Assembly: GCA_018303655.1 (NCBI GenBank)
Contig: JAGVXT010000012.1
Location: 17,996-81,995 of the forward strand
DNA: 64,000 nt
Direction of reading: 5' to 3'
Origin: Candidatus Woesearchaeota archaeon
Lineage (GTDB): Archaea > Nanobdellota > Nanobdellia > Woesearchaeales > GW2011-AR4
The first letter of the stretch is position 1. Every line of letters starts with the position of its first letter. Below are positions 3,825 to 64,000 of the stretch, in pieces. The translations under genes were made by a program, and so were the position numbers. The notes below the pieces were generated by a model that was not told where the DNA came from, searched no databases, and saw nothing but the letters and a program-made list of their open reading frames with translations.

Positions 3825-4099
3825 AAACAAACTATTCTAACAAAGGATAGCCCATTTCATCATTTTTGATGTAATTGCTGAGAAACATCTCTAAGAAGCT
3901 GATGGTGAAGGTTTAAATATCTTTCTCATTTTCTTTAAACAATGCCAAAACTTCCATTCAAATTCTGGCTTCTCAGCAACGTCGAAAATTTTTAAATTTT
4001 CGGAGTTTCTGAAATCTAAAGGATTTCAGCAACATTTATAAAGCAAGATTATTTCTCCGACGTAATCTCAAAAAATTAGTATTTTGGAGAAATGGCAAA

Positions 4100-10410: not shown

Positions 10411-10768
10411 ATTTTTGCTTTAATTGTTTATACAATTTTATAATAAGTGATGATAGTATGTAAAGGATTGCTAAATCCAAAATTAAATTCATTATCCTAA
10501 TCTTATAATTCGAATCACAAGTAATGACGTCACCAGCTTCTACAGCATTTGCACACCCAAAATAAAGAAAAGGCAATGGCAATCCTGATTCATAAAAATA
10601 TGTGTCATCTCCTTGTTTAAGTAAAGGAAAAGTACCATATGGGGTAAAATACCCCCAGATAAAAGATAATATCCCAAGTACAATAAACAATATTATTTTA
10701 CCTTTACTAGGTCTAAAAAAAGCTTTTACCTTCCCCATAAAATCATTATTTTTCCTTTCCATCCTCAT
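10397..10768 (-). CDS. small membrane protein
   Basis: 123 aa with two hydrophobic segments. Its start and stop overlap both neighbours, consistent with one operon. Confidence 0.5.
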   Translation of the reverse strand: MRMERKNNDFMGKVKAFFRPSKGKIILFIVLGILSFIWGYFTPYGTFPLLKQGDDTYFYESGLPLPFLYFGCANAVEAGDVITCDSNYKIRIMNLILDLAILYILSSLIIKLYKQLKQKYETA

Positions 10769-12801
10769 CCCACACTCACCTCCGCTATAATACTGCTAGT
10801 CCCAACGGTACTTGGATTAAAGCTAAAATCAAAAGTTTGATTTTTAGAAACATTAATCAATTTAGTTGCACTATCTCCTGGGTAAACACTTAATAAATTA
10901 CCATCTAAAGTAGCATTTACTATTGCATTTGCATTTAAAGGTCCTTTATTCTTAACAACAACTCTTACAATGCCGGATTTGTCCTTAACCATATCGACAT
11001 CTTTAACCACTTGAATTGGGATTATCTCTAAAATTTCAAGGTCTGTAGAATTTGCAGGCGTTAAATTGGATTCATACCAGTTTATTGAATTATCATTGAA
11101 ACATGCACTTAATGCATCAACATCATTATCTTTATCTATATCTATTGCATAGACCGATTTTGCATTATTACAGTTAGTGCTTATATTATGTACTGTCCAG
11201 CCCGGTAGAGAAGATCCATTGTTCTCGTACCAAGCTATTCTACCATCAGCTCCAGAAGCACTCAAGACATCAATGTCATTATCGTTATCTATGTCTTTGG
11301 CAAAAACGGCAAATGCCCCAGCAGCAGAAGTAGTTATATTACGAGCAGTCCATGAAGGAGGAGATGAGCCATTATTCTCGTACCATGTTATTTTATTGTC
11401 AAGGCTAGACGCACTTAAAACGTCAATATCGTTGTCCTTGTCTATATCTATTGCGTAGACTGACCTTGCTGAATCAGCAGAAGTAGTTATAATCCGAGCA
11501 GTCCAATTTGGAGGGATGCTACCCTTATTCTCGTACCACGCTATTTTGTCATCAACAGATGAAGCACTCAATACATCAGTGTCATTATCTTTATCGATAT
11601 CTATTGCAAAGACAGATCGAGCATTTATGGCAGATGTGTTTATGGTATGGGTAGTCCAATTTGGAGGATAACTGCCATTGTTTTCATACCAAGCTATTTT
11701 ATTGTCATTGACAGAAGCACTTAATACATCTATATCCTTATCACTGTCTATGTCTATTGCAAATACTGAAAATGCGAAGTTAGTAGTTGTAGCTATAGTA
11801 TGTTTAGTCCAACCTGGAGGTGAGCTTCCATTATTTGCGTACCACTTTATTCCACCAGAATCTGAGGCACTTACTACATCTATATCGCTATCGTTATCAA
11901 CATCAATTCCATAAACTGACCTAGGACCAGCAGCAACAGTGTCTATAGCACGTCTTATCCAACCCGGGGGTGTGCTGCCATTGTTTGCATACCACATTAT
12001 TTCATTATTAAAATTTGCTGCGCTGACTACATCTATATCACTATCTTTGTCTATATCAATAGCAAAAACTGAATGCGCACCATTATCTAATGTGGTTATG
12101 GTACGGGTCGTCCAACCAATCACAGGATATACTATAAATTCACTTAAACCTCTAATATCTTGGCTTATTTCTAGATTAATATAATCTTTATTATTCAAAG
12201 AATATACAGAAACAGTATAATTCAAATCAATAACATCTTTAAAATCATAATAATTGTTTCCAAAAGTCAATGTATGTCCAGTTAAAGAGGTTTCATTAAA
12301 ACCAGGAAATATTTCTTCTTTAACTTCAAAAGCTTTAAAATAAATATGCCCATTACTAATAGTATATTTTGTGCCGTTCCAAATAATGAAATCAGAATCT
12401 ATCTCATATAGAATATTTAATTTTATATTCTTTTTCGTGTTTAATAAATTCCTAAGAATATAAGTTTGCTTTACTGGTTTTTCATCAACATTAAAAAAAC
12501 TTGTATCAATTTCTTCGTAAACACTCTCGATTTCTGTGTTTTGCGATTTAAACTTGTTTCTTATCTTTTTACCAGAAAAAGGAAGAGTTTCTTTATCAAA
12601 TGCTTCAACAGCAATATTATCATAGTCAATACTAAATCCAATCTGCTTAAACCCTTTTAGATGATTAAATTTATCAACAGCCACTATATCACTAATAATT
12701 GTTTTTGATTTATTATCGTTTAAATCAACAGCACCAACAAATAAAGATAGAATAATCCCTATAAAAATCATAAAAAGAAGATTTACTTTATTCAAATTCA
12801 A
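10765..12801 (-). CDS. secreted FG-GAP/VCBS-type seven-repeat (beta-propeller) protein
   Basis: 678 aa with a signal-like N-terminus. It has seven ~57-aa repeats of the form SVFAIDIDKDNDIDVLSAS...I.WYENNGS.PP.WT, with Ca-binding-like DxDxDxD. Confidence 0.7.
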   Translation of the reverse strand: MNLNKVNLLFMIFIGIILSLFVGAVDLNDNKSKTIISDIVAVDKFNHLKGFKQIGFSIDYDNIAVEAFDKETLPFSGKKIRNKFKSQNTEIESVYEEIDTSFFNVDEKPVKQTYILRNLLNTKKNIKLNILYEIDSDFIIWNGTKYTISNGHIYFKAFEVKEEIFPGFNETSLTGHTLTFGNNYYDFKDVIDLNYTVSVYSLNNKDYINLEISQDIRGLSEFIVYPVIGWTTRTITTLDNGAHSVFAIDIDKDSDIDVVSAANFNNEIMWYANNGSTPPGWIRRAIDTVAAGPRSVYGIDVDNDSDIDVVSASDSGGIKWYANNGSSPPGWTKHTIATTTNFAFSVFAIDIDSDKDIDVLSASVNDNKIAWYENNGSYPPNWTTHTINTSAINARSVFAIDIDKDNDTDVLSASSVDDKIAWYENKGSIPPNWTARIITTSADSARSVYAIDIDKDNDIDVLSASSLDNKITWYENNGSSPPSWTARNITTSAAGAFAVFAKDIDNDNDIDVLSASGADGRIAWYENNGSSLPGWTVHNISTNCNNAKSVYAIDIDKDNDVDALSACFNDNSINWYESNLTPANSTDLEILEIIPIQVVKDVDMVKDKSGIVRVVVKNKGPLNANAIVNATLDGNLLSVYPGDSATKLINVSKNQTFDFSFNPSTVGTSSIIAEVSVG
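11076..12081 (-). repeat. seven tandem ~171-nt coding repeats (propeller blades)
   Basis: The periodicity is visible in the translated repeats of ORF 10765..12801 and in the antisense ORFs that mirror it. Confidence 0.7.
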
Positions 12802-12967: not shown

Positions 12968-13216
12968 AAAACCACCCATCAGTCGAATGCGAGTGAGCAA
13001 ATCATTCGCTCACAATTCACTGGGTGGCATGTTTAGGTGCTATCCCATTCAGATGGTTTTGGACATCACAAAAACCATAGGTTTTTGGAATCCCGAAAAT
13101 CTGTGATTTTCGCGACTACAAAATTCCACTTATTAATGGATGATTTTTGAGCACATCCAAATTCCATGCAATATGCTTGTAACACATAAACCACTTATGA
13201 AACATAAGTGGAATTT
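12968..13216. other. hairpin-dense intergenic island (candidate structured ncRNA)
   Basis: Hairpins seen: CCACCCA...TGGGTGG enclosing GTGAGC..GCTCAC; ATGGTTTTG..CAAAAACCAT; CAAAAACCATAGGTTTTTG; CGAAAATCtgtGATTTTCG; CCACTTATgaaacATAAGTGG, plus a distal AATTCCACTTAT partner. Confidence 0.4.
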
Positions 13217-15306: not shown

Positions 15307-17302
<1,996 letters not shown>

Positions 17303-17420
17303 GGGATTTATGAACTCTTTATATAAATTTTCAATCCGCCCCTTCGGGGCAATAGTTAGTGCTCGGCTTCCGCTTCCATTCAATCGCTCCAGCCTCGCTT
17401 ATTGATTCAATAAAAATATC

Positions 17421-17466
17421 AAAAGCGGTTTACTTTCTGCACTTTGCAGCCAAAAGTCGCTCTCGT
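17421..17466 (+). repeat. bipartite dispersed element, copy 1
   Basis: AAAAGCGGTTTACTT-tctgcactttgcagcc-AAAAGTCGCTCTCGT followed by a T-rich run. It lies downstream of a GC-rich island (17335-17400). Confidence 0.7.
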
Positions 17467-17530
17467 TTTATTGATATTTTATTAATTGTTGTTTTATAAT
17501 TTGAATGATTTTTTAATTACTGAAACATAA

Positions 17531-20056: not shown

Positions 20057-20275
20057 TAGTAACAGAAAGATTTATATACTAGCTATGCTTTCTAATTGTT
20101 ATGAAACGAGTTGATTGTCTTCATATTGAGTAAAAATAATTCTTGTTTAAATAGTTTCAACTCTAAAAATTCAAAATCAATTTTGAAAATTTATATTGGT
20201 ACTGTAACTTCTGTACATCATCATTGATTTCTTTATTTTTAAAAATTAGTTATAAGACTAAACTACAAATCAAAA

Positions 20276-20302
20276 ACCAGTCGGCGGGCTTAAAGCGCGG
20301 AG
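20276..20302 (+). repeat. conserved leader motif, copy 1 (CGGCGGGCTTAAAGCGCGGAG)
   Basis: Identical 21-nt core to 20728-20748. It ends in a GGAG Shine-Dalgarno 11 nt before ATG 20314. Confidence 0.6.
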
Positions 20303-20313
20303 TAATGGTTAAA

Positions 20314-20642: not shown

Positions 20643-20714
20643 GGCAGCAGTATTTCAACGGCAGAATAGACGACTGTGGCTCGTCTGATAGGAGTTCAAT
20701 TCCCCTCTGCTGCC
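20643..20714 (+). tRNA. tRNA-His(GUG) with encoded G-1, no intron
   Basis: G-1 pairs with C73. Acceptor GCAGCAG/CTGCTGC, anticodon arm GACGA-CTGTGGC-TCGTC (anticodon 20676-20678), T-arm AGGAG-TTCAATT-CCCCT with one A-C mismatch. Confidence 0.75.
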
Positions 20715-20721
20715 CTAATAA

Positions 20722-20750
20722 AAAAGCCGGCGGGCTTAAAGCGCGGAGGA
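20722..20750 (+). repeat. conserved leader motif, copy 2
   Basis: AAGCCGGCGGGCTTAAAGCGCGGAGG lies directly after tRNA-His and 10 nt before ATG 20759. Confidence 0.6.
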
Positions 20751-20758
20751 AAATAAGA

Positions 20759-25666: not shown

Positions 25667-25884
25667 TTACGACAATTCAGCTGGACAAGAGAATTGTGGC
25701 AAAGCTCAAGAAAGCCAAGGAGCACCCTAGGCAGACTTATAATGAACTTCTTGACAAGGCGGTTTCTGTCTTTATGGCAGTCAAAAAAGTAAATAGCTAT
25801 GACGAATTCCTTCATAAGGTGCAACAGCCGAAAATGAGGGAATTATGGGGCAATAAGGAAGACGAGGCATGGGAGAGTGTATAA
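25667..25884 (+). CDS. putative antitoxin partner of the MazF/PemK-like toxin
   Basis: Reads MTEVTTIQLDKRIVAKLKKAKEHPRQTYNELLDKAV. It overlaps the downstream toxin by 8 nt. ORF track start is 25588. Confidence 0.55.
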
Positions 25885-26182
25885 TGCAGGGGACGTGATT
25901 CTCGCACAGGTACAATTTACAGACACTTTTGAGGTTAAAACAAGGCCTGCTGTAGTTCTTTTTGAAGAGTATGGCAATATAGTAGTTGCTGGCGTCACAA
26001 GCAACACTGAAATGGAAGGCATACCATTGACAAAAAAAGAAGGCGCTGTAAAGGACAGCATCATAAAAGTAAATTATATCTTTACAATCTCGGAAAAAAT
26101 GGTGAAAAAAAGATTGTTTTCTTTATCTCAAGAGAAGAAAAGGATTTTGATATCTGAATTCGTAAAAAGGCTGAATAAATAA
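25877..26182 (+). CDS. PemK/MazF-like toxin
   Basis: 101 aa. GDVILAQVQFTD....KTRPAVVL....NIVVAGVTSN is typical of the family. Confidence 0.65.
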   Translation: MYNAGDVILAQVQFTDTFEVKTRPAVVLFEEYGNIVVAGVTSNTEMEGIPLTKKEGAVKDSIIKVNYIFTISEKMVKKRLFSLSQEKKRILISEFVKRLNK

Positions 26183-26478
26183 GCATATTTATGGGTTTTT
26201 GGGGATGGAGTAAGTTGGTTGAAAGTTCATTTAACGTACAATTTTAAGTGAGGTTTTTCTCCTCGAAAAATTCCCCTCGTGAGCAAAATTGAGGCAACCC
26301 ACAAGTTTCAGAGCGGATAAATTTTGTAGAGCTGAAAAAATGTTAGGTTGAGTGAGCGATGCCTTTGATGGCTGAGCGAACGAACTGGCTTTGATGCCCG
26401 ATTTCGTGAGGATTTAGTTGTGAGTGTCGCCCAAATCCGCTTTGATGCGGATTTGGATTTACTTCTCATATTATTTTA

Positions 26479-26541
26479 GTGGAAGAGCGGCTTTTTGTAA
26501 AAAAGTTTCTGAAACTAGTTCGAAAACCCGCCGTAAATCCC
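26479..26541 (-). repeat. left inverted copy of the island-flanking element
   Basis: The reverse complement reads GGGATTTACG-GCGGGTTTTCGAA-CTAGTTTCAGAAAC...ACAAAAAGCCGCTCTTCCAC. The first 23 nt are identical to the split right copy at 31015-31055. Confidence 0.75.
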
Positions 26542-26591
26542 AGTTGTTGCTGTAGTATATCTGTAGCAAATAGCACTGGACATTTGTGGGC

Positions 26592-26603
26592 AAGGTTTAT
26601 AAA
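26592..26603 (+). promoter_or_regulatory. TATA-like box (AAGGTTTATAAA) and SD (AGGGAG, 26631-26636) for the restriction gene
   Basis: Both lie upstream of ATG 26641. Confidence 0.4.
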
Positions 26604-30978: not shown

Positions 30979-31013
30979 ATTTTGTTATGGGGTTTAACGT
31001 AGGCGACAACAAA

Positions 31014-31118
31014 GGGGATTTACGTTTTAGTATCAACGATAAGCGGGTTTTCGAATTGCATTTAATCCTAGTTTAAGACCTGCGTATAAATTTTCAAATT
31101 ATACGAAAGTTCTTCCAC
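31014..31118 (+). repeat. right inverted copy of the island-flanking element
   Basis: GGGGATTTACG[18-nt insert]GCGGGTTTTCGAA[12-nt insert]CTAGTTTAAGACC...GAAAGTTCTTCCAC. Collinear with the reverse complement of 26479-26541. Confidence 0.75.
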
Positions 31119-31197
31119 GACCTGAAAGGAAAAACCATAATGAAGAAGCGGCACGAACGAACATGTAACACAGGTTTAATGAACTTTCTACAATATT

Positions 31198-33090: not shown

Positions 33091-33147
33091 TTTAGAATTT
33101 TATTTAATTTCGATTAAGATTTTTATTTAGTTTTTTGTTATAATTAA

Positions 33148-33341
33148 ATCCGTCGCTTCGCGACAATATCCAGGCTCGCCGGTGAGATGCGAAAGCTCGA
33201 GATGCACGCGAGTTTGAGATGCTTGCGAGAGTGGAATGCGAAAGCTTGCTTTCGCTCGCTTATCTTACAAGCAAGCTCGCGTTCAACTCGTGCTCGCAAA
33301 CAACTCTTTCGCTCGCTTATCTACCTGCTCGCCTATGCATC
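33148..33341. other. GC-rich hairpin-dense island (candidate structured RNA or repeat)
   Basis: Hairpins GTCGCttcGCGAC and AGCTTGCTT...AAGCAAGCT. The words GAGATGCGA, GAGATGCAC, GAGATGCTTGCGAG and CGCTCGCTTATCT recur (the last twice). Three overlapping plus-strand ORFs here look spurious. Confidence 0.4.
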
Positions 33342-33441
33342 AAAAGCGGTTTACTATCGAAAATGCAAAGCATTTTCGGAAGTCCCAAAAACCAAAGGTT
33401 TTTGATACTTTCAACACCTTGCTGTCAAAAGTCGCTCTCGT
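33342..33441 (+). repeat. bipartite dispersed element, copy 2 (long insert)
   Basis: AAAAGCGGTTTACTA...[72-nt insert with hairpins CGAAAATGCaaaGCATTTTCG and CAAAAACCaaaGGTTTTTG]...AAAAGTCGCTCTCGT followed by a T-run. Confidence 0.7.
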
Positions 33442-33516
33442 ATTTTTTAATCAAATTTTATTTTAACGGTTTATATAAAATTCAAGCAAAGTTTTATTTA
33501 ATATTTTTCAGAAAAG

Positions 33517-52887: not shown

Positions 52888-52978
52888 TTAACTTAATTTT
52901 ACACATTTATAATTTATTCAAAAAAACAAGCGACCCATTTGCTTCTAAAGAAGTTGAATTGGCACCCCGCAGTTCTGT

Positions 52979-53025
52979 AAAAGCGGTTTACTTTTATCAC
53001 CTTTACTTATAAAAGTCGCTCTCGT
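52979..53025 (+). repeat. bipartite dispersed element, copy 3
   Basis: AAAAGCGGTTTACTTTTATCACCTTTACTTATAAAAGTCGCTCTCGT followed by a T-run. 46 of 47 nt are identical to copy 4. Confidence 0.75.
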
Positions 53026-53124
53026 TATTTTTTGGATAATTTTTTATTTGGATGTGCCGCCAATTAATCCCGCATAATCATAAAAATTAAATACTCCTGC
53101 AAAATAAGCAAAAATTGGTTTGGG

Positions 53125-56896: not shown

Positions 56897-58386
56897 CCAA
56901 AATGAAGCTTAAGATTAAGGATATAGCCATCGCAAGCGGCGGCCCTTTAATTGCAGTCATGAACAGTAAGGATGCTGCAATGTTTGATATCCACGTGATG
57001 GACAGGATAAAGATAAAAAAAGGGAAGATTATTGAGACTGTTGTTGTTGATATAGCACAAAGCAAAAAAGTAGTCCCAAAAGGCAGGCTTGGTGTTTTTG
57101 AAGAAGTGATCAGATCTTTGAATTTAAAAAATAATGACATTGTAGATATCGCCATTGCCAGAAAGCCCCTGTCGATTGATTACATTAAGAAAAAACTAGA
57201 TGGGCAGAGATTAAGCAAAGAAGAAATTAACCAGATAGTGTGGGATATTGTGCACAACAAGCTAAGCGCTGTTGAAATGACATATTTTGTTGCAGCATGC
57301 TATACAAATGTCATGACAACTGAAGAAACAATATTGCTGACTAAGGCAATGGTTGAGCACGGCGATGTGCTAAAGCTGAACAAGTATCCAGTTGTGGACA
57401 AGCATTCTATTGGAGGAATCCCTGGCAACAGGACTACACTTGTTGTTGTCCCGATAATCGCTGTTGCCGGATATTACATTCCAAAAACCAGCTCAAGGTC
57501 GATAACAAGCGCTGCCGGAACTGCCGATACAATGGAGGTTCTTGCAGATGTGACCTTTCCAATAAAAAAGATGAAGGAAATTGTCCTGAAAACAAGAGGA
57601 TGCATTGTATGGGGCGGTGCATTAAACCTTGCTCCTGCTGATGATAAGATTATAGCAGTTGAAAGGCCTTTGGAGATAGACGCTGAAAGCCAATTGCTTG
57701 CTTCAATAATGGCAAAGAAGCATTCTGTTTCAAGCACCCACATCCTCATTGATGTTCCTGTCAACAAGGACTCAAAAGTAAAAAACAGGGTTGAAGCTTT
57801 AAAACTCAAGAAGGAATTTGAGAAAATCGGAAAAAAGCTGAAAAAGCATATTAAGGTGCTGATAACAGACGGCAGGCAGCCAATAGGCAATGGCATAGGA
57901 CCTGCTTTGGAAGCAAGGGATGTACTATGGGTGCTGAAGAGGGATCCTAGGAGACCAATTGATTTGGAAAAAAAATGCCTGATGATGTGCGCCAATATTT
58001 TTAGCATGGTTGGACTAAAAGAAGGGTATAAAAAGGCTTTATCAATTCTAAATTCTGGCAAAGCTTACCAAAAAATGGTTGAAATAATAAAAGCCCAAAA
58101 CGGCAAGGAAATTGCAGCAGAAGACATTAAGATCGGCAAATACTCTTATGATGTTTTGTCAGCAAAAAGCGGCAGAATTATCGACATAGATAATGTGCTT
58201 GTTTCAAGAATCGCAAGGATTGCAGGAGCTCCTCACGATAAAGGCGCTGGAATTTATTTGTATAATCATATTGGCAGCAAAGTAAAAAAAAAGGAGAAAT
58301 TGTTTACAATCTATTCTGAAAGCAGGCACGAGTTTGAGTATGCTAAAGATATGGCTAAGAGTTCTAAGGTGTTTATTATAAGATAA
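56893..58386 (+). CDS. deoA: AMP phosphorylase / archaeal thymidine phosphorylase family
   Basis: 497 aa. The N-terminal extra domain (KLKIKDIAIASGGPLIAVMN) precedes the glycosyltransferase-family-3 core (DKHSIGGIPGNRTT, SRSITSAAGTADT). Confidence 0.8.
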   Translation: MTKMKLKIKDIAIASGGPLIAVMNSKDAAMFDIHVMDRIKIKKGKIIETVVVDIAQSKKVVPKGRLGVFEEVIRSLNLKNNDIVDIAIARKPLSIDYIKKKLDGQRLSKEEINQIVWDIVHNKLSAVEMTYFVAACYTNVMTTEETILLTKAMVEHGDVLKLNKYPVVDKHSIGGIPGNRTTLVVVPIIAVAGYYIPKTSSRSITSAAGTADTMEVLADVTFPIKKMKEIVLKTRGCIVWGGALNLAPADDKIIAVERPLEIDAESQLLASIMAKKHSVSSTHILIDVPVNKDSKVKNRVEALKLKKEFEKIGKKLKKHIKVLITDGRQPIGNGIGPALEARDVLWVLKRDPRRPIDLEKKCLMMCANIFSMVGLKEGYKKALSILNSGKAYQKMVEIIKAQNGKEIAAEDIKIGKYSYDVLSAKSGRIIDIDNVLVSRIARIAGAPHDKGAGIYLYNHIGSKVKKKEKLFTIYSESRHEFEYAKDMAKSSKVFIIR

Positions 58387-58389
58387 AAA

Positions 58390-58575
58390 TACGCCGCGAC
58401 TCGGACTTGCATGTGGCAAACAGTGACATGCGAGGCTCACTAGGGACTCGCTCGCCATTTACCCGCTTGCCACAATTTGAACCGAGAAACCCTTGCGGGA
58501 ACCAGCTTTCGCATTGCGGGGAATTCCCATGAATTCCAGCTCAAGGCTAGCGCAGTGCCAGATTGTGCCATCGCG
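58390..58575 (-). tRNA. tRNA-Ser(UGA) with two introns (37/38 and 59/60)
   Basis: Acceptor GCCGCGA/TCGCGGC plus G73, anticodon stem CTAGC/GCTGG, loop CTTGAG|A (anticodon 58539-58541), intron 1 at 58506-58537 (32 nt). Long variable arm (CCCgcaaGGG). T-arm CTCGG-TTCAAA|intron 2 at 58404-58473 (70 nt)|T-CCGAG. Confidence 0.75.
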
Positions 58576-58690
58576 GCAATAAGAAAAAGTTTTACTGGTT
58601 AATTTAAATTTATTGATTAATTTTTAATCAGAAAGCTAATCCCGTCAAAAACCTCTGGTTTTTGGGGTGCTCGAAAATCTTTAATTTTTG

Positions 58691-58766
58691 ACACTTTGCA
58701 GGGTTTGAACCCAGACGTCCTTGCGGACGGGAGGTTCTCAGTCTCCTGTATGCCACTTTGAGCGGC
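58691..58766 (-). tRNA. tRNA-Leu(GAG)-like sequence without a matching 5' acceptor strand
   Basis: On the minus strand: GCC-GCTCAAAGT-GGC, GGAGA-CTGAGAA-CCTCC, variable arm CGTCCgcaaGGACG, T-arm CTGGG-TTCAAAC-CCCTG, 3' CAAAGTG. No CACTTTG 5' strand, and 4 extra nt sit before the anticodon stem. A TTTATAAA box lies about 40 nt upstream. Confidence 0.3.
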
Positions 58767-58848
58767 CTTTTATTTCTTCAAGTAAATGTAGTAGGACTTC
58801 TCTTTTATAAATATCACGTGAAGATGTCCAGTGGTAGAAAAAGCAAAT

Positions 58849-60353: not shown

Positions 60354-61010
60354 GTGATTCTAATGCACTACGAAATATACAAAATCAGAGGTAGAAAATA
60401 CAAATATGCTGTTGAAAATTATAGAGCTGGTAAGAAAGTGAAACACAAAAAAACCTATATCGGCGCTTTGGAGCCGATAAACAAAGCCAAAAGGAAAAAG
60501 GGTGGTGGTAGAAAACCAGTCCTCTTTGTCAGACAGATTACAGAGGAAGAAAGAGCAGAACTTATGAGAAACTCAAAGAGCCAAGATGCTTTCATAAGAG
60601 ACAGAGCAAGACTAATTCTGTTCTCTTGTCAAGCCTTAAGAGTCAAAGAAATAGCAGGCAACATGAGTTGCGGCATAAGAAAAGTCAGAAAAGCAATAAA
60701 AGACTTCAATAAAAAGGGGCTTGCTGCTTTGCAGAGAGGCAAAGCAAAGGGCGCTGTTCCTAAATTTGACAATGTGATAAAGAAAATGATTCTTATGCAC
60801 TTCTCACAAAAACCAAGCAAATTCAACTATCATTTCACAACATGGACACTGCCAAGATTTACAAATCACCTTATAGACTATAAAGTCGTTGAATCCATCA
60901 GCATAGAAAAGGTTAGGCAGATACTCGAAGAGGCTGGAGCAAGGTTGAAAAGAAGCAAGCGATGGCAATACTCTCCAGATAAAGATTTTGATAAAAAAAA
61001 CTTGCAATAG
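60354..61010 (+). CDS. IS630 transposase, N-terminal HTH part (orfA)
   Basis: 218 aa. HTH and winged-helix segments (RARLILFSCQALRVKEIAGNMSCGIRKVRKAIKDFNKKGLAAL). It ends just after the GATAAAAAAAAC A8 run. Confidence 0.75.
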   Translation: MILMHYEIYKIRGRKYKYAVENYRAGKKVKHKKTYIGALEPINKAKRKKGGGRKPVLFVRQITEEERAELMRNSKSQDAFIRDRARLILFSCQALRVKEIAGNMSCGIRKVRKAIKDFNKKGLAALQRGKAKGAVPKFDNVIKKMILMHFSQKPSKFNYHFTTWTLPRFTNHLIDYKVVESISIEKVRQILEEAGARLKRSKRWQYSPDKDFDKKNLQ

Positions 61011-61045
61011 AGCAAGCTATTGCGTATCTTCCGCAAAACAGCGTT

Positions 61046-61522
61046 TTGCTATCTTTTGACGAGAAAGGAAAGACTGCAATCAAAATCTATGGAGGGCAAA
61101 AGTATGTCTTTCGAGGGTACTATCACATACCTTATGGGCAGAAAATTAAAGGAATTTGTGATTTATTCATGGCCCGCAACATTCATACAGGCAAAAGGCA
61201 TTACGCCTTTTATGACTGGAAAAACAGCTTTATTGTCACTGAATTTCTTGAAAAGTTGTTGGAGATTTATCCAAACATGGACATTTACATAATTTGGGAC
61301 GGATGGAGCGCTCATAGAAGCGAGCATACAAAGATGTTTTTGGATTTACATCCGAGAATAAAGATACTGCCTTTGCCAACAAAGGCATCATGGCTAAATC
61401 ATGTTGAAAGGGATTTTAGCAGCATACAAAGATTTCTGCTGAATAATAGTAATTTTGAAAGTGTGGTTGAATTTATCCAAGCAACAGAAATATTTATTGA
61501 AAAGGAGCTATGTTCTAGTTGA
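61046..61522 (+). CDS. IS630 transposase, DDE_3 catalytic part (orfB, -1 frame)
   Basis: The frame is open from 60995 (KKLAIEQAIAYLPQNSVLLSFDEKG...). It carries LSFDEKG, IIWDGWSAHRS and LPTKASWLNHVERDF. Confidence 0.75.
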   Translation: MLSFDEKGKTAIKIYGGQKYVFRGYYHIPYGQKIKGICDLFMARNIHTGKRHYAFYDWKNSFIVTEFLEKLLEIYPNMDIYIIWDGWSAHRSEHTKMFLDLHPRIKILPLPTKASWLNHVERDFSSIQRFLLNNSNFESVVEFIQATEIFIEKELCSS

Positions 61523-61748
61523 AAGTGTAATTAAGGCATTGGAAATAAAAGGTCATGAAGACAAAGCATTGGAAGTTGCCACAAGATTTTCCGATTTAAA
61601 CATATTAGTTGATAGGGATATGGCGCTTAGCACAAGAGATATGCGTGCTGTTTTTTCAGGAGTAGAGGATAGATTTAATCAAAGAGAAGCTTACCGAAGA
61701 AAGCTTTATGATAGGTTTATTAAACCTTACGAAGCATTACTGGATTAA
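61455..61748 (+). CDS. hypothetical ORF adjoining the IS right end
   Basis: 97-aa ORF. Its first ~28 codons overlap the IS630 end, so it may be a remnant or start later. Confidence 0.25.
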   Translation: MKVWLNLSKQQKYLLKRSYVLVESVIKALEIKGHEDKALEVATRFSDLNILVDRDMALSTRDMRAVFSGVEDRFNQREAYRRKLYDRFIKPYEALLD

Positions 61749-62803: not shown

Positions 62804-62865
62804 CTTGTCTGCTTCCTTATTCTTGCCAGCCTTTTCTTCCTGCTTGGATGCTTGTATCGCGCCAT

Positions 62866-63201
62866 TTAAACTCTCTTTATTTTGATTTCTTTCTTCTTTG
62901 GAGTTAATTGCTCCAAAACCTTTTTCAGTGTTGAATCGTCGATTTTGCTTTGAACCTGTCCTTTTTGTATTGCCTGGAACAAGATCAAAAGCAGTTGCAG
63001 CGCCTTTTCCTGATGCGCTGTCTTCAAATTTCCGTACCTTGCCAGCGCTTCTTTTGTCATGAACTGCCTGACAATGGTTTCCATCTGCTCAATCTGCTGC
63101 TGTATCTGCGCATGCTCATTGGACTGCCCCTGCATTCTTTCCTGCTGCAGCTGCATCAATTCCTCAAGCTTTCTTTTTTTTATTTCGTCAAGAGTAGGCA
63201 T
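62866..63201 (-). CDS. PDCD5/TFAR19-like DNA-binding protein
   Basis: 111 aa. KRKLEEL..LQQ...., FMTKEALARYGNLK...... The position between rps19e and rpl31e is typical of archaea. Confidence 0.7.
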   Translation of the reverse strand: MPTLDEIKKRKLEELMQLQQERMQGQSNEHAQIQQQIEQMETIVRQFMTKEALARYGNLKTAHQEKALQLLLILFQAIQKGQVQSKIDDSTLKKVLEQLTPKKKEIKIKRV

Positions 63202-63731: not shown

Positions 63732-63881
63732 TTTTGTTGCAAATATTTTATTCCTGAATTTTATTTATTTTAATCCAAAAATTTTGTATACAAAATTTTC
63801 ATAATTTGTGCGCGTCGGCATTCTCCTGCGGAGTAATAATCATTTTTGTACTACTCCTCCGCGCCAACTCATTAAAACACC

Positions 63882-63928
63882 AAAAGCGGTTTACTTTTAT
63901 CACTTTTACTTATAAAAGTCGCTCTCGT
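63882..63928 (+). repeat. bipartite dispersed element, copy 4
   Basis: AAAAGCGGTTTACTTTTATCACTTTTACTTATAAAAGTCGCTCTCGT followed by a T-run. It is preceded by a GC-rich long hairpin at 63806-63868. Confidence 0.75.
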
Positions 63929-64000
63929 GATTTTTAATTTAATGATTTATTATTAATTATATTTATTCGCACCTTGCGGTGTTAGACTGGCTAACTCGGT

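Follow-up and report, generated by a model that had tools for sequence, protein, structure and literature searches.

The REP/BIME sequences of Escherichia coli (e.g., the malE–malF REP) are dispersed, multi-copy imperfect palindromes that lie in transcribed intergenic and intercistronic regions, are built as mosaics of a few hairpin types and linkers, and are present or absent between relatives. The element of Woesearchaeota reported here likewise consists of multi-copy imperfect palindromes with a mosaic composition, an intercistronic location and variable presence between relatives, and its sequence and setting suggest that it is transcribed. Stabilisation of upstream mRNA segments and an influence on termination have also been proposed for REP/BIME sequences, and the present element may act in a similar way. 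However, it is archaeal (DPANN) and much larger, combining three distinct helices with long single-stranded motifs that do not vary; its copies lie directly before the next promoter and strongly tend to share the orientation of genes, and no RAYT-type enzyme was seen near them. Other comparable repeats are ERIC/IRU, the Correia elements of Neisseria and bcr1 of Bacillus cereus (~100–160 bp, transcribed and folding as RNA), which are similar in size (~130–160 nt) and in having a conserved RNA structure. Their co-transcription with neighbouring genes, to which they can bring terminator or promoter activity, is a likeness that may extend to the present element by analogy. Nevertheless, these families have clear terminal inverted repeats and, in the case of Correia elements, target duplications, neither of which was found here, and they show no sequence or Rfam similarity to it. 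CRISPR repeats of the hairpin-GGAUUGAAAC type (e.g., types I-C and I-B) share a short GC hairpin directly followed by GGAUUGAAA, but no repeat–spacer arrays occur in ~0.5 Mb of related sequence, and the motif varies in this family to GGAUAUAAA and GGAUUAAAA. Finally, archaeal C/D and H/ACA guide RNAs also form many paralogs per genome with conserved motifs around variable parts, whereas the present element has no C, D or ACA boxes where these are required, its variable part is not kept between orthologs, and its tandem G·A pairs form no K-turn since the 3-nt bulge is missing. To our knowledge, DPANN archaea have been cultured with difficulty or not at all, and their RNA biology is almost unstudied. 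A literature search returned no description of an element of this kind from Woesearchaeota or DPANN, and the family described below, multi-copy and modular, with an RNA-type structure selected on one strand, is newly described.

The window, i.e., the 64-kb stretch of Woesearchaeota DNA that was analysed, has a G+C content of ~38% and encodes, according to Pfam and tRNA scans, the ribosomal proteins S3Ae and S19e, FttA/aCPSF1, a proteasome subunit and tRNAs with introns. Two sequence halves of 14–15 nt, AAAAGCGGTTTACT and AAAAGTCGCTCTCGT, each occur exactly four times in the window, always on the plus strand, and are paired at 17421–17466, 33342–33441, 52979–53025 and 63882–63928. With up to three mismatches, the right half has no site in the window beyond these four (1.36 chance matches expected), and the left half has 10 matches against 10.2 expected, so that only its four exact occurrences stand out; an HMM search of the window with the whole hairpin also returns four copies and no more. 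Exact pattern matches at all four sites bear out the original prediction of four copies in the same orientation, including its statement that copies 3 and 4 are identical at 46 of 47 positions and that every copy is intergenic and followed by oligo-T, which is a T4–T6 run directly after each copy on the plus strand. The central lengths of 16, 17 and 17 nt given for copies 1, 3 and 4 are right, and that of copy 2 is 70 nt instead of 72. The GC-rich islands noticed upstream of copies are also real, and they correspond to the other helices of a larger element of which the paired halves form one part.

A single hairpin, termed T1, contains both conserved ends as the two sides of its basal stem, and the centre forms its apical part. 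The 46-nt unit first taken for the whole element is one hairpin within an element of 150–330 nt, whose common form measures ~140–165 nt. On the RNA strand, which is the complement of the strand on which the repeat had been noticed, the element is composed of an A-rich tract, T1, an AU-rich linker, the helices P2 and P1, and the 3' motif GGAUUGAAA, which varies to GGAUAUAAA and GGAUUAAAA. T1 comprises a basal stem GAGAGCG/CGCUUUU (7 bp, two of them G·U), an AAAC bulge, an inner stem ACUUU/AAAGU and a variable apex, while P2 has tandem G·A/A·G pairs at its base and a UGGCAG loop, and a UUGAUGU within the linker varies to AAUG or GAUU. Read on the plus strand, the alignment of flanks gives the order TTTCAATCCG, P1, CAAATTCTTGTGCTCG, P2 (with a CTGCCA loop), CTCGCCTATTTATTCAATAAACATYAAA, T1 and T-tracts. 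A core of ~30 nt is invariant across 18 genomes. An additional outer helix between the A-rich flank and the U-rich linker finds no support, as its folding energy (-4.7 kcal/mol) is no better than that obtained with shuffled flanks (-3.9 kcal/mol).

Around this core, the family is modular. About half of the T1 copies among the matches listed are followed by the canonical body, termed A, and the rest by A', by B or T2, by C, or by none. Alternative bodies (A', B and C), alternative cap hairpins (T2 in L009; T3 in L047 and L023), copies reduced to T1, inverted pairs and nested insertions were all found, the modules T1, T2, T3, A, A', B and C being variously combined and T1 and T2 used in either orientation. 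Body A', that of window copy 4, is also present in the metagenome set, and body C, that of window copy 3, recurs in the metagenome copies L098, L143 and L144. In at least 13 non-redundant cases, T1 is followed by an ORF start 9–55 nt downstream.

The fold of this element is firmly assigned to the strand opposite to that on which the repeat had originally been read. In the consensus fold of the complementary strand, which consists of four helices (T1 basal, T1 inner, P2 and P1), 94.8% of the cells are paired. Double-sided changes occur at 13 of the 27 pairs and amount to 84 cells, against 24.8 ± 3.7 in column shuffles, none of 500 of which reaches 84, and against 9–24 in controls with slid partners; thus, the covariation proposed as a check of the original prediction is present. 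Across the family, both sides have changed in 7 of the 10 pairs of P2, and variant T1 copies replace the inner stem ACUUU/AAAGU by GCUUU/AAAGC and CCUUU/AAAGG. In turn, 5 of the 6 pairs of the T1 basal helix never vary, which suggests sequence-specific recognition. The strand call is given by the wobble pairs, since the complementary strand contains 71 G·U cells against a single A·C (43 against 1 when an invariant pair is left out), and these 71 cells turn into A·C mismatches on the plus strand. Likewise, the tandem G·A/A·G at the base of P2, which is also found in several P1 variants, becomes U·C/C·U. Folding energies agree with this call, being lower on the complementary strand in each of 33 full-length copies (mean -35.8 vs. 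-25.2 kcal/mol), with mean z-scores of -3.0 (complementary) and -2.25 (plus) and consensus folds of -21.3 and -8.8 kcal/mol, respectively. A closing stem between the two ends, as initially suggested, does exist, although it pairs in full solely on the complementary strand, as GAGAGCG/CGCUUUU.

From the strand call it follows that all four RNAs of the window lie on the minus strand, and that the T-run, which had been considered the end of an RNA, is an A-rich tract located ahead of it and not a terminator. The case illustrates that an A-rich leader can pass for a terminator when a repeat is read on the wrong strand. A small RNA of the plus strand, or a plain intrinsic terminator, with a guide-like centre and ending at the T-run is therefore very improbable. 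Such a product would account for the run of at least 5 T that follows T1 on that strand within 15 nt in 52 of 68 copies and within 30 nt in 62 of 68, and the TATA box of the next gene is placed where a divergent transcript could start. However, a transcript starting 24–26 nt from that box would begin inside P1, orthologs differ in the centre, T1 follows a small minority of genes, and the A·C mismatches, U·C pairs and weaker folds described above would all have to be accepted. A generic archaeal oligo-T terminator was also rejected, as the T-run is opposite to the selected fold, T1 is found in only four intergenic regions of the 64-kb window, and the ~30-nt core is invariant in 18 genomes; the objection raised in the original prediction, namely that a simple terminator consensus after most genes might explain the distribution, does not apply. 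By comparison, a run of at least 5 T lies within 60 nt of the stop codon in ~29% of other genes. The direction of transcription is inferred from the G·U asymmetry together with the orientation of genes, although the corresponding G·T asymmetry could also stem from hairpins in single-stranded DNA.

The four window copies, all on the minus strand, represent several of these forms, and their folds have z-scores from -2.4 to -5.5. Copy 1 (17329–17490) is of type A, is matched by T1 (nhmmer E 6e-17) and domain A (E 2e-17) profiles and folds with -44.6 kcal/mol (z = -3.6). It contains the T1 hairpin at 17421–17466, defined by its exact halves and the structure alignment, the P2 helix with its tandem G·A/A·G base at 17361–17398, supported by covariation in the family, and the P1 hairpin at 17338–17350, followed by the 3' tail GGAUUGAAA at 17329–17337. 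Copy 2 (33142–33480) is canonical with a greatly expanded P2 (33170–33336) and folds with -117.8 kcal/mol (z = -5.5); its P1 lies at 33152–33164, a weak domain-A HMM match spans 33142–33180, and a TATA-like TTTTATATAAA is located at 33470–33480. This copy is flanked by two minus-strand genes, identified with Pfam as those for a proteasome beta-subunit and FttA (fttA), and its T1 hairpin (33342–33441) has a nested insertion in the apex. Copy 3 (52920–53091; -28.3 kcal/mol) is a probable stand-alone small-RNA gene, with a TATA-like box at 53080–53091, a GC-rich leader at 53054–53073, an A-rich spacer, T1 at 52979–53025, a type C body and an end formed by GGGUCGCUUG and U7 at 52920–52936. Copy 4 (63773–64000; -39.3 kcal/mol, z = -4.8) is located upstream of the S19e operon and runs beyond the window end. 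It is composed of leader hairpins (among them CACC-GCAA-GGUG at 63970–63982), an A-rich spacer, T1 at 63882–63928, a type A' body at 63808–63865, an AT-rich hairpin and the motif GGAUUAAAA, which precedes the S19e ATG by 45 nt.

The variable centre of T1 had been interpreted as guide-like or intron-like; the former interpretation does not hold, and the latter appears unlikely. Apical sequences differ between orthologous copies at the same genomic position, as observed at the S19e-upstream site of the window, L004 and L047, as well as in the sets L019/L020/L049 and L023/L041, the proteins adjoining same-position copies being 73–92% identical between species. This argues against a guide function. 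The guide-RNA idea was abandoned on these grounds, and an extension of the conserved AUCAC/GUGAU towards the anti-Shine–Dalgarno/Shine–Dalgarno sequences was not enriched either. Concerning copy 2, its 70-nt centre is explained by another, independent repeat, a double hairpin (CGAAAAU-n5-AUUUUCG plus CAAAAACC-n3-GGUUUUUG), a copy of which is nested here as the mini-repeat CGAAAAUgcaaaGCAUUUUCG plus CAAAAACCaaaGGUUUUUG at 33358–33404. This repeat of ~50 nt (as DNA, CAAAAACC-n3-GGTTTTTG plus CGAAAAT-n5-ATTTTCG) is also found in the window at 3982–4030, 13060–13112 and 58645–58690 and in L016, L021, L024, L027, L029, L035, L041 and L051. It occurs in either orientation, either intergenic or, in other genomes, nested in the P2 loop or the linker of the larger element, and it behaves like a small mobile palindromic insert. 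In comparison with the bulge-helix-bulge (BHB) motif of archaeal introns, in which two 3-nt bulges flank a 4-bp helix, T1 bears a single 4-nt bulge on one strand only, and the insertion in copy 2 is a dispersed repeat that is also found outside RNA elements.

Known RNA families do not account for the element. The Rfam comparison suggested with the original prediction was carried out, and no family reaches its gathering threshold: Rfam 15 scans of the window return only tRNAs, focused scans (E up to 10) of copy 1 and of the copy 4 locus give chance-level matches only, with scores of 17 bits for snR66 (gathering threshold 65), 12.8 for CRISPR-DR10 (39) and 18.9 for mir-70 (90). A C/D box sRNA was discarded since neither strand of the consensus keeps RUGAUGA or CUGA. 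An H/ACA sRNA was discarded as well, since ACA follows P2 in ~60% of cases, the outer stem has 2 bp, the G·A pairs are at the base where an upper-stem position would be required, and a pocket is lacking. Inspection by eye also spoke against K-turn, hammerhead, group II domain V and sarcin–ricin motifs, whose defining nucleotides are either missing or variable. A CRISPR array or crRNA-like origin was also set aside, as there are no arrays in the loci or the window, no conserved neighbour protein, and only the sub-threshold DR10 match.

An exact scan for the T1 pattern, with one genome per species, located 63 T1 loci, all of them in Woesearchaeota (18 assemblies, a few records being labelled 'Methanosarcinales'). 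No assembly has more than 11 of these, and related genomes contain 6–11 copies of the exact core each. A relaxed pattern added at least 100 further copies in metagenome contigs from groundwater and aquifers, and a profile of the non-T1 part alone found 58 copies in the fetched loci, including copies with variant T1 or other terminal hairpins. Copy density is roughly one per 16–60 kb. Viral contigs contained no match to the T1 pattern, and their 14 matches to the domain-A pattern were all due to chance in GC-rich coding DNA. Individual sites are dispensable, and the element is gained and lost between close relatives. This is seen at the junction between the genes for a dsDNA-binding protein and L39e, which abut in the window with the sequence TAAATG (62858–62870). 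At the same junction, L063 (4198–4407) and L004 (1419–1640) contain an insertion of ~215 nt in which the element lies between an A-rich and an AT-rich tract, and L047 contains an element with a different cap hairpin. The comparison of filled (L063, L004) and empty (window) sites reveals a possible TAAA duplication, which is indistinguishable from the AT-rich background. The L39e gene (start at 62862, minus strand) is too short for the ORF list, and in the window nothing interrupts the operon of S19e, the dsDNA-binding protein and L39e.

These observations raise the question of whether the family is a selfish mobile repeat (REP/RAYT-, PATE- or MITE-like) whose strand-specific hairpins are needed for transposition as single-stranded DNA, any effect on transcripts being incidental. 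The multiplicity and spacing of the copies, the mosaic modules found in either orientation (T1, T2), the nested insertions, the filled and empty sites in close relatives, and the near-identical copies within one genome (window copies 3 and 4; L017 and L032) would all be expected of such a repeat. Nevertheless, the only terminal inverted repeat shared by the ends of the element is TTCAA/TTGAA, no target-site duplication is clear, and no transposase is enriched nearby. Its ends do not resemble those of the IS630-like transposon of the window (60.3–61.8 kb), which led to the rejection of a MITE of this local transposon. Moreover, its orientation follows the local genes, even in two opposite copies on a single 72-kb contig, which argues against an orientation set by the direction of replication, and same-position copies persist across species (73–92% protein identity) with an invariant core and compensated stems. 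For these reasons a selfish origin of this kind is considered unlikely. Concerning the broader original proposal of either a small-RNA gene family or a MITE-like element, the dispersed, multi-copy, mosaic and structure-selected nature of the family and its gain and loss are upheld, and the readings of its unit, strand, T-run and centre are not.

No partner protein, mobilising enzyme or cas gene was seen among the neighbours of the copies within ±3 kb. No conserved protein was enriched there, the largest cluster being associated with 4 of 68 copies, and the same applies to the RAYT family (IS200/IS605-like Y1 transposases). Gene orientation shows a clear pattern, as upstream and downstream neighbours are co-oriented with the RNA strand in 49 of 60 and 48 of 63 cases, respectively. 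An independent metagenome set gave 55 of 67 and 46 of 62 among the matches listed, with both neighbours co-oriented in 33 of these and both anti-oriented in 6. Of the copies, ~80% point along with both flanking genes and ~20% are anti-oriented, including window copies 1 and 3. The distance from the upstream stop codon to T1 has a median of 53 nt, the spacer being composed of 58% A and 4% G, and 4 of 31 such spacers contain a run of at least 5 T. At the other end, the 3' tail GGAUUGAAA is located ~38–47 nt ahead of the next ATG, just upstream of the usual TATA position, and some T1-only copies lie 9–20 nt ahead of the next ATG. Certain copies are flanked by linked gene pairs, such as class II FBPase/aldolase and pyrE/pyrF. 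These linked pairs, together with the T1-only copies close to an ATG, imply that the RNA must often be part of a polycistronic transcript.

Signals for independent transcription are restricted to some loci. TATA hexamers of ordinary genes start with a sharp peak at -33 to -28 in these genomes, whereas no positional peak of a TATA box was found before T1 across copies generally, and a dedicated promoter before every T1 was therefore rejected. On the RNA strand, half of the copies lack a run of at least 5 T within 180 nt. Nevertheless, four S19e-linked orthologs contain an invariant TTTTTAAA box, followed after ~24 nt by a conserved leader that has two hairpins, one bearing a GCAA tetraloop. This promoter, as well as the TATA-like box and U7 end of copy 3, makes some copies look like stand-alone small-RNA genes. 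In an alternative reading, the element would encode, on the minus strand, trans-acting small RNAs or RNA subunits of one ribonucleoprotein, in which the core (the T1 base and bulge, the P2 GA motif, the UGGCAG loop and GGAUUGAAA) would bind a common protein and the variable parts would differ in partner. The near-invariance of the T1 basal helix (5 of 6 pairs) agrees with this, and the peripheral helices expand as they do in ribonucleoprotein RNAs. However, most copies have neither a positioned promoter nor a same-strand terminator, apices that differ between orthologs make conserved targets unlikely, and both the dispensability of individual sites and the T1-only copies 9–20 nt before start codons are difficult to reconcile with it, so we regard a trans-acting role for the family as doubtful.

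The reading tentatively preferred here, to which we would assign somewhat less than an even chance, is that of a REP/BIME-like transcribed intergenic boundary module acting in cis on mRNA ends, by analogy with the bacterial systems. As such a boundary module, the element would be transcribed as a 3' extension or intercistronic spacer of the upstream gene and, at some loci, from its own promoter. The folded RNA may shield mRNA segments from exonucleases by capping them, or it may mark the sites of processing, and the invariant core probably binds a host protein. In addition, the T-tracts that follow T1 on the complementary strand could stop antisense transcription from the intrinsically symmetric TATA box of the next gene. 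The 30-nt invariant core and the conserved loops exceed what a simple stabiliser hairpin would need, and a dedicated ribonucleoprotein fits at least as well. In its boldest form, and with low confidence, the element may be the RNA part of a previously unknown archaeal system of transcript punctuation, i.e., a sequence-specific ribonucleoprotein or a self-processing RNA placed between cistrons instead of a passive hairpin. Such a system would define 3' and 5' ends of mRNAs and separate units in compact DPANN genomes, with stand-alone small-RNA versions at certain loci, and a dedicated nuclease or binding protein would recognise the core, the tandem G·A, the UGGCAG loop and the CRISPR-repeat-like hairpin-GGAUUGAAA end. 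Regardless of its mechanism, this is a covariation-supported element with tens of copies per genome, found at the boundaries of transcription units and inside operons, and it provides an annotation model for dozens of 'GC-rich intergenic islands' per genome. If the boundary module has a stabilising, processing or insulating effect on transcripts, these archaea would have their first described REP/BIME-like system, and the element would provide a handle on how genomes nearly free of intergenic space avoid interference between neighbouring genes.

Several other features were observed in the window and in related loci. In L030, L032, L040 and L054, another conserved hairpin, followed by T7 (GTGGCTCAGCAATGGGCCAC-ATTTTTTT), ends a convergent gene of 352–356 aa that adjoins the element (upstream in the plus-strand sense), and it appears to be an ordinary terminator hairpin. 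Two repeats at 26479–26541 and 31043–31118 had been considered diverged members of the family, but the family HMM gives only a partial match (E = 0.64). They belong to inverted repeats of ~40 nt (CAACAAnnGGGATTTACG...GCGGGTTTTCGAA; 26440–26600 and 30990–31150) outside the T1 family, which flank a 4.5-kb island (26.5–31.1 kb) coding for an NgoPII-like restriction endonuclease, a C5 cytosine methyltransferase, a Vsr endonuclease and unknown proteins. This region looks like a mobile restriction–modification island, and a MazF-like toxin gene (25877–26182) lies just upstream of it.

A tRNA-Leu(GAG)-like fragment is located at 58690–58790 on the minus strand, with a good anticodon arm, a long variable arm, a weak T arm and no 5' acceptor strand. 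It was called by neither ARAGORN nor Rfam and could be a split, permuted or decayed tRNA. This fragment was also considered as a relative of the element and rejected, as the two have only the adjoining double-hairpin repeat in common. The GC-rich ~200 nt beside it (58386–58600) match no Rfam family. Around tRNA-His (20644–20715), a 32-nt direct repeat (20274–20305 and 20720–20751, 88% identical, AAAnnAGyCGGCGGGCTTAAAGCGCGGAGnAA) may represent an integration-site duplication or processing or regulatory sites. At 60354–61748, remnants of an IS630-family transposon, with HTH and DDE_3 domains spread over several frames (gene calls L078–L085), look degraded, and their ends are unrelated to the repeat families. 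The gyrB gene (15340–17302) is split into two overlapping frames, 15340–16662 with the ATPase and GyrB domains and 16598–17302 with the Toprim and C-terminal domains, which could reflect a frameshift, a sequencing error or programmed recoding. Lastly, the ORF at 10765–12801 on the minus strand (678 aa) contains six to seven tandem repeats of 153 nt (51 codons) at 11072–12081, 64–79% identical, and this repeat-domain protein is probably a surface protein.
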